From Escherichia coli (GTDB taxonomy: Bacteria; Pseudomonadota; Gammaproteobacteria; Enterobacterales; Enterobacteriaceae), in the NCBI RefSeq assembly GCF_003334255.1, contig NZ_QOWU01000102.1: a stretch of DNA of 6,185 nt; one strand, given 5' to 3'. Below, in pieces: positions 3,825 to 3,981 of the stretch (position 1 is the stretch's first letter; the number at the start of each line of letters is the position of its first letter). The notes beneath the pieces were generated by a model that made no database searches, had not been told where the DNA came from, and was given only the letters and a program-made list of their open reading frames with translations. Both the position numbers and the translations under genes were made by a program.

Positions 3825-3842
3825 AAATCCTGAACTTAACGG

Positions 3843-3872
3843 AACCCCGTCATCGTACGGGGTTTTTTGTTT
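3843..3872 (+). terminator. Rho-independent terminator downstream of the portal gene
   Basis: GC-rich hairpin with stem CCCCGT (3845-3850) pairing ACGGGG (3857-3862) and a 6-nt loop CATCGT. The stem can extend by two A-T pairs (3843-3844 with 3863-3864). It is followed by TTTTTTGTTT (3863-3872) and begins 19 nt after the portal stop. Confidence 0.7.
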
Positions 3873-3971
3873 CCGGAGATAAGCGTTCCGGGAGCGGTGC
3901 GCTTATTCGCGGGGGCAGCGATAAGCCTTATTTACTCAACCATTCGGATCTGTCCGATAAACAGACCATGC

Positions 3972-3975
3972 GGAG
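3972..3975 (+). promoter_or_regulatory. Shine-Dalgarno (GGAG) for the scaffolding gene
   Basis: GGAG lies 6 nt upstream of the ATG at 3982. An in-frame TAA at 3958-3960 closes the frame upstream, so 3982 is the first possible start. Confidence 0.55.
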
Positions 3976-3981
3976 TTATTT

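Follow-up and report, generated by a model that had tools for sequence, protein, structure and literature searches.

A predicted structured RNA leader behind a conserved terminator in the head module of 933W-like phages

The 6185-nucleotide (nt) stretch of Escherichia coli DNA analyzed here (contig NZ_QOWU01000102.1; hereafter, the window) is 100% identical to Escherichia phage PhiR12_3 and carries part of a phage head module in which the portal gene is separated by a 157-nt gap from a head-assembly gene, known as L0115 in phage 933W and as open reading frame (ORF) 61 in Sp5. The gap holds an intrinsic terminator followed, on the + strand, by two predicted hairpins (P1 and P2), a pyrimidine-rich spacer and a putative H-type pseudoknot. 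To judge from comparative sequence evidence, P1, P2 and the pseudoknot make up a structured leader, conserved and not described before, ahead of an essential gene for head assembly. A terminator within an antiterminated late operon is ordinary; the interest lies in the leader that comes after it.

Terminator and leader structures in the portal-L0115 gap

The first-pass annotation of this DNA had recognized a canonical hairpin plus T-tract at 3843-3872, and the element lies exactly there, with its hairpin 19 nt past the portal stop. The G+C-rich stem comprises 8 base pairs (bp), five of them G-C, or 10 with G.U and A-U extensions, and is closed by a short loop of 6 nt; the U-run lies immediately 3' of the stem, and AA 3843-3844 are possible pairing partners for its first two T. 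With a free energy (dG) of about -12 to -14 kcal/mol and 10 pairs, the hairpin is the top + strand site of the window's terminator scan. A single hairpin with a T-run in 6 kb is within chance and statistically unremarkable alone: a strict scan of the window gave 3 sites where dinucleotide shuffles gave 0.94 +/- 0.77, and 69% of the shuffles contained at least one; a lax scan gave 13 where shuffles gave 6.5 +/- 2.6. The terminator was judged real because of its position, in the only large gap, and because it is conserved with unrelated stems. Portal-to-L0115 gaps were gathered from E. coli variants together with Salmonella and Yersinia prophages (by protein homology), from 92 IMG/VR contigs (found by DNA motif), from a clade of beta-proteobacterial, Achromobacter-type phages (the beta clade), and from further lineages. 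A script detected a hairpin (dG <= -8) followed by a U-run in 49 of 52 distinct upstream contexts; its three failures were one script artefact, one point mutant and one moron-bearing prophage, so that about 50 of the 52 have the terminator. At least seven unrelated stems occupy this place (AACCCCGU, GAGCCCUGC, AGCCAGC, GCCCAC, GGCCACC, UGCCCGC and GGCCCCCGCCGA), and several lineages possess a tandem pair of terminators at the portal end. Since unrelated stems are kept at one place, selection appears to maintain a terminator-shaped element there, and on this comparison 3843-3872 is predicted to be a genuine intrinsic terminator for unmodified polymerase.

Across the enteric lineages, P1 is a helix of 17-19 bp with 2+2 internal loops, a dG of -21 to -34 kcal/mol and an invariant core, UAAGC/GCUUA, in its middle stem. 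Covariation was assessed on an alignment of 37 sequences (33 distinct) over 22 pairs, representing P1 and a small 3' hairpin: 97.9% of the cells were paired, against 27-50% with slid partners, and two-sided changes were seen in 7 pairs, one P1 pair occurring as C-G, A-U, G-U, G-C and U-G. Three U.G pairs are conserved, which on the opposite strand would give C.A mismatches; they point to + strand RNA, and the conservation of the gap bears the mark of such a structure. P1 starts at G3869, within the terminator U-run, and would therefore form only in read-through RNA.

The 8-nt loop of P2 is near-invariant, reading AGCGAUAC in most lineages and AGGGAUAC in the beta clade, while its stem varies (GGGC/GCCU, AGGC/GCCU, GGGC/GUCC, GCCC/GGGC, GGCC/GGCC, GUCC/GGAC, and AGAC/GUCU in L310); all 68 of 68 cells are paired, with two-sided changes in three of the four pairs. 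In the putative pseudoknot, CGGAUCUGUCCG (3945-3956) holds the 3-bp S1, and its loop UCUG supplies the 5' strand of S2. Both helices are short (3 + 4 bp) and both covary: 96.9% of the cells are paired against 27-40% with slid partners, and compensatory changes occur in 4 of 7 pairs, S2 being found as UCUG/CAGA, UCUA/UAGA, CCUA/UAGG and UCCA/UGGA and the third S1 pair as G-C, C-G and U-A. S2 ends 6 nt before the GGAG of the Shine-Dalgarno (SD) sequence in the window; in L311, L312 and the beta clade its 3' strand runs into the SD. The pseudoknot thus lies at or over the ribosome-binding site. The SD itself is kept in relatives as AGGAG, GGGG or GAGG.

The pseudoknot also contains a GATC (Dam) site at 3947-3950, invariant in the enteric lineages (GGATCT); the beta clade has GGACCT in its place, a change that is compensated in S2. 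A hairpin joining the P1 3' arm to the P2 region, with a U-rich tract behind it, was weighed as a further terminator or attenuator and rejected, as its dG is -4 to -10.6 kcal/mol against -21 to -34 for P1 and its U-tract is poor. In one lineage, represented by three IMG/VR contigs (L274, L276 and L281), P1 is replaced by a plain terminator-like hairpin, GGGCUCUG-UUAUCG-CAGAGCCC with UUUUU, that runs straight into P2, a hint that the two kinds of hairpin, P1 and terminator, can replace one another or have a common origin.

Conservation and distribution of the leader

Positions 3869-3981 are conserved at or above the level of the flanking genes, and 3913-3929 are particularly well conserved. A comparison of six phages from three genera shows hardly any variation over 3863-4000, with flanking coding DNA 83-92% identical; the leader of the window shares 99% identity with that of 933W (flanks 87-92%) and 74-79% with those of Salmonella relatives (flanking genes 63-69%). 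The 157-nt gap is present in 478 copies, each at least 95% identical, in 421 of 5426 complete E. coli genomes, and none of the 478 copies bears an annotated feature. A covariance model of the leader (R1) detected exactly one copy per phage, a minus-strand match (14.6 bits) being a palindromic echo of the hairpins, and each true motif match lies upstream of a gene of the L0115 family, which comprises 1281 representatives at 50% clustering.

The motifs are retained in gamma- and beta-proteobacterial phages in which the proteins of the flanking genes are only 28-59% identical. P1 is confined to enteric lineages; P2 and the pseudoknot occur also in beta-proteobacterial phages, where the downstream protein is about 28% identical. 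In the beta clade (L010, L234-L247), P2 (GCCC-UGGGAUAC-GGGC) stands about 20 nt after the portal stop and upstream of the terminator, giving the order portal stop, P2, terminator, pseudoknot, SD; terminated portal transcripts of this clade would carry P2 and the terminator hairpin at their 3' end. In Yersinia the gap is a moron insertion site: in a Yersinia enterocolitica prophage (L019:645-1500; L039 likewise) it contains a colicin gene (PF01024) and an oppositely oriented immunity gene (PF03857); P1 and P2 stay beside the L0115 homologue, but the pseudoknot has lost S1.

Rfam 15 returned no match at E <= 1 in the window and, at E <= 0.1, none of relevance in five related loci, and in the searchable literature the motif strings appear only as unrelated primers. 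A search of 298 Gb of contigs with the 14-nt GGGCAGCGATANGCC gave at least 120 matches, those listed all being due to chance, as the query was too short. Six IMG/VR contigs of about 9.3 kb (L249-L251, L278-L280) have at 25-52, roughly 30 nt from one end, the string CGGAYCUAUCCG-NNAAAUAG, which fits the pseudoknot pattern; it stands outside any phage head context and is probably a chance match shared by descent, or unrelated. A coding reading of the gap found no support. A 41-codon ORF at 3867-3992 (+), annotated in phi345, has a TTG start in the T-run and lacks an SD, and its frame is broken in relatives by indels of 1, 4, 7 and 8 nt; annotation pipelines thus put spurious ORFs on the leader. 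Compared by eye with the invariant stretch, a sigma-54 promoter, the RfaH ops element, boxA and CsrA GGA sites did not fit. A 129-codon antisense ORF at 3976-4365 (-), annotated in Stx2 converting phage I as 'ORF-2c', looks spurious.

Several observations weigh against the explanation favored below. The beta clade, without P1 and with P2 upstream of the terminator, may mean that the modules are not one unit, and in Vibrio-phage relatives (28% identity) the gap is strongly structured (z = -3.85) and contains none of the motifs. The 5' arm of P2 overlaps the four outermost P1 pairs, which makes the P2 stem and those pairs mutually exclusive, and full P1 and P2 alternative candidate folds. Pairing of the spacer with the SD region in most lineages is a weak, thermodynamic prediction (SD unpaired probability 0-0.42). 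As to the pseudoknot, its distant metagenomic rows L311 and L312 were picked and aligned by hand, with one L312 base removed, and several of the compensatory changes may each represent a single evolutionary event.

Read-through and expression of the downstream genes

In PhiR12_3, an 'antitermination protein Q' is encoded 12 kb upstream on the same strand, and the genes from holin to tail fibre are all co-directional; the 933W annotation includes Q, pR', qut and tR'. The components of a Q-antiterminated lambdoid late operon, namely Q, a late promoter with qut and tR', and co-directional late genes, are thus present. It is established for these phages that transcription, when Q is present, passes terminators and enters the late genes (PMC7547250). 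The late operon of 933W contains about ten strong, intergenic, terminator-like hairpins on the + strand, and a hairpin with a U-run follows both the capsid gene and the next gene (L113:17834-17851, 18274-18292). The post-capsid element, which lies outside the window, is present in all enteric relatives (L011-L020), where the next gene is followed by one too, and in Salmonella and Yersinia relatives (L015, L016, L018, L020) a hairpin with a U-run also stands directly before the capsid gene. Such intra-operon hairpins are presumably read through in productive infection, because efficient stops would abolish capsid and tail synthesis. By analogy with 933W-type phages, and given the presence of Q, Q-modified polymerase would be expected to read through the terminator at 3843-3872. 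As a side observation, nearly every head gene is bracketed by terminator-shaped hairpins, and in the Yersinia prophage L019 the stretch separating the L0115 homologue from the capsid gene (L019:2544-2751) spans 206 nt, folds with -67 kcal/mol and has no significant match in Rfam (best E = 0.096).

The best explanation, to which we give somewhat more credence than doubt, combines a terminator for unmodified polymerase, Q-dependent read-through and a structured leader that acts post-transcriptionally. RNA polymerase unmodified by Q would stop at the portal end, closing the terminase-portal block and shielding the head genes from unscheduled transcription in lysogens or at the start of infection, whereas Q-modified polymerase coming from pR' would pass. 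The read-through RNA would then fold into P1, P2, the pyrimidine spacer and the pseudoknot directly before the ORF61 ribosome-binding site. This leader most likely would govern how translation starts at the pseudoknot and SD, perhaps together with a bound protein; it could also, or instead, leave a nuclease-resistant 5' end on the processed RNA. Flanked by hairpins, the message for ORF61 and capsid could thereby reach levels far higher than those of terminase and portal, even with a terminator upstream.

The first-pass annotation had pointed to a stoichiometry paradox, a terminator placed ahead of the two highest-copy structural genes, and had offered antitermination (with the hairpin as a stabilizer or processing site), a hidden promoter, or control by mRNA stability and translation as ways out. 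Where the capsid gene is concerned, the paradox stands; its extension to the gene at 3982-4989 is more doubtful, as the scaffold label given to that gene is weak and ORF65 is the scaffold proposed in Sp5. Antitermination is the best supported of the three options, given Q in PhiR12_3 and 933W, the dependence of P1 on read-through RNA, and the hairpin with U-run before the capsid gene of relatives, which cannot be an efficient stop. The stability and translation option is plausible as well, and is sharpened by a leader that abuts the SD and by hairpins that bracket the ORF61-capsid pair.

A promoter within 3873-3981 that restarts transcription for ORF61 and the capsid gene, with the conserved sequences serving as DNA sites for polymerase or an activator, found no backing and is very improbable. 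A terminator followed by conserved DNA does resemble the layout of a transcription unit boundary, and the very high conservation of 3913-3929 would suit a binding site; however, scanning the window revealed no sigma-70-like site (-35 and -10 hexamers spaced by 16-18 nt) on the + strand of the gap, the candidate -10 region varies in sequence and length among relatives, P1 starts 0 nt from the terminator U-run, and conservation tracks base-pairing (G.U pairs, compensatory changes), as expected of RNA rather than of protein-binding DNA. The same covariation appears largely to refute the idea, to which we attach scarcely any credence, that the leader has no function of its own and is either a stretch homogenized by recent exchange between mosaic lambdoid phages or a boundary, at the level of DNA, for recombination or moron insertion. 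Other 100%-identical patches relative to 933W (201-400, 2301-2500, 3201-3400) and the moron insertions in Yersinia would agree with it, but the motifs survive, with compensatory base changes, at the low flanking-protein identities of gamma- and beta-proteobacterial phages given above. It is also improbable that the hairpin acts as a partial terminator (attenuator) in the lytic cycle too, with the output of ORF61 and capsid rescued by translation efficiency alone. The canonical, strong anatomy of the hairpin, the tandem terminators of several lineages and the good SD of the capsid gene are in keeping with such a role, which would, however, cut transcription of the highest-copy genes. In addition, Q is present, relatives have like hairpins immediately ahead of the capsid gene, and the combined effect of the roughly ten such sites in the 933W late operon would leave almost no transcription at the tail genes.

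Possible, if doubtful, is that P1 is a processing site, of RNase III type or RNase E-flanked, at which late RNA is cut between portal and ORF61; the terminator hairpin would shield the portal 3' end, and P1, P2 and the post-capsid hairpin would shield the ends of the ORF61-capsid segment and raise its stability. This is compatible with terminator, Q read-through and a post-transcriptional leader, and differs only in emphasis. Every enteric lineage has the long, stable P1 helix with internal loops, and hairpins bracket ORF61 and the capsid gene. RNase III sites span some two helical turns of mostly paired RNA and frequently include an internal loop; by that yardstick P1 is of borderline length. 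A passage of PMC7547250, citing Daniels et al. 1988, places RNase III sites in lambda late RNA in vivo. The beta clade, however, lacks P1 and yet has P2 and the pseudoknot, and the invariant sequences of the P1 core and P2 loop exceed what RNase III needs. A more specific version of leader control, which we think unlikely, would have the P2 loop and pseudoknot as an RNA operator and the free ORF61-family protein, or another head-module protein, as the leader-binding factor, repressing translation until procapsid assembly consumes the repressor. If true, this would be the first defined RNA operator of a scaffold-type phage protein, and one common to gamma- and beta-proteobacterial phages, Stx phages included.

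Related systems and gene context

Lambda-type late operons are organized as pR'-qut-tR', with Q making polymerase resist intrinsic terminators, and contain internal terminators, for example those of morons. The phages studied here share one long late transcript from pR' with several canonical terminators that are read through; they differ in that the portal-end terminator is not moron-borne but is a constant part of the head module in phages with unrelated early regions and hosts, and in that it is coupled to a conserved RNA leader. Long imperfect hairpins between cistrons of a read-through transcript are also known from the intercistronic RNase III sites of T7 and from rpsO-pnp, where a regulatory leader hairpin that undergoes processing comes after a leaky terminator; P1, in contrast, is a candidate for cleavage, and is a helix with an invariant core that is missing in one clade. 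In the malEFG, papBA and puf operons, stabilizing intercistronic hairpins produce segmental mRNA decay and, as here, flank the segment that encodes the most abundant product; the hairpins of the phage operon, putative stabilizers, have U-runs and thus are full terminators.

The leader pseudoknots of T4 gene 32 and of E. coli rpsO (S15) are autogenous translational operators. Common to them and the present leader are a small H-type pseudoknot in the 5' leader at or near the ribosome-binding site and a gene product needed in assembly-dependent amounts, whereas sequence and Rfam similarity is absent and the enteric S2 ends about 6 nt before the SD, not over it. In phage P22, autoregulation of the scaffolding protein gp8 is coupled to capsid assembly, and we know of no RNA operator defined there. 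Like gp8, the protein of interest is encoded between a P22-type portal (PF16510) and the coat gene, is predicted to be helical and is undetected on virions; unlike gp8, with which it has no detectable homology, it is not the protein to which the Sp5 study gives the scaffold role (ORF65). The N-terminus of gp8 has been implicated in its autoregulation (bioRxiv 10.1101/2022.12.13.520362).

The significance of the leader lies in a covarying, multi-part RNA, outside Rfam and annotation, that is predicted in E. coli prophages by the hundred, Stx1 and Stx2 phages among them, and also in Salmonella, Yersinia and beta-proteobacterial phages. It would offer a mutable handle on unequal outputs from one late RNA, bears on possible feedback of head-assembly proteins on their own production, and could provide a route to uncouple Stx-phage particle production from toxin expression.

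The features of the window are compiled in Table 1. The window is about 92% identical to 933W and to some 190 further short-tailed phages of the Stx type (Sepvirinae). The labels of the first-pass annotation upstream of the hairpin, large terminase (TerL) and portal, are both supported, the portal also being annotated in 933W and POCJ13. Downstream, the coat assignment is upheld, PF13252 being found in relatives, while the scaffold label of the preceding gene is positional only.

Table 1. Features of the window, with positions counted from its first nucleotide
Feature	Position	Strand	Details
Large terminase gene (TerL)	cut by window start, end 1680	+	
Portal gene (933W L0114, Sp5 ORF60)	1680-3824	+	stop TGA 3822-3824; PHROG 156, E 1e-252
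Intergenic gap	3825-3981		157 nt; only sizeable gap in the window's 933W-like head module
Intrinsic terminator	3843-3872	+	stem 3843-3850 (AACCCCGT) / 3857-3864 (ACGGGGTT); loop CATCGT 3851-3856; U-run 3863-3872 (TTTTTTGTTT; TTTTTT G TTT)
P1 hairpin (predicted)	3869-3916	+	19 bp in the window; RNAalifold and covariation
P1 helices (predicted)	outer 3869-3875/3910-3916; middle 3878-3886/3899-3907; top 3888-3890/3895-3897	+	
P2 hairpin (predicted)	3913-3928	+	stem GGGC 3913-3916 / GCCU 3925-3928; loop AGCGAUAA
Pyrimidine-rich spacer	3929-3944	+	variable length and sequence
Putative H-type pseudoknot	3945-3965	+	S1 CGG 3945-3947/CCG 3954-3956; S2 UCUG 3949-3952/CAGA 3962-3965
Shine-Dalgarno GGAG	3972-3975	+	6 nt upstream of ATG
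Head-assembly gene (933W L0115, Sp5 ORF61/ECs1222)	3982-4989	+	335 codons; PHROG 479
Major capsid gene (933W L0116, Sp5 ORF62)	5012-6185, continues past window end	+	Shine-Dalgarno AAGGAG at 4996-5001

Single-sequence and profile searches with the 3982-4989 protein gave no Pfam, NCBIfam or PDB match. Its AlphaFold (AF2) model consists of helices and disorder (pLDDT 66), and Foldseek returned only weak matches of this low-confidence model to proteins named scaffolding, so that the predicted helical and disordered fold is weakly scaffold-like. Among literature matches for ECs1221, ECs1222 and L0115, the Sp5 genetics paper was the only one (PMC5155283). According to this study, deletion of ORF61 leaves no head-like particles, making the gene essential for head formation, and an ORF61 antibody does not label Sp5 virions; its authors left the role of ORF61 open and proposed ORF65 as the scaffold.

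Elsewhere in the window, the terminase stop and portal start share one base (TGATG, 1678-1682), which suggests translational coupling of terminase and portal, in contrast to the 157-nt structured gap before the next gene. About 65 nt into the portal ORF, at 1744-1762 (+), lies a further terminator-like hairpin, AGCGCC-AGTTACA-GGCGCT followed by TTGTTCTG; it is conserved in 933W (L113:13333-13351) and may reflect chance or an intragenic pause or stop site. Relative to 933W, the window contains, besides its 100%-identical patches, stretches of 71-74% identity at 5551-5700 and 5901-6050; these most divergent patches fall within the capsid gene and look like mosaic recombination or diversifying capsid surface segments.

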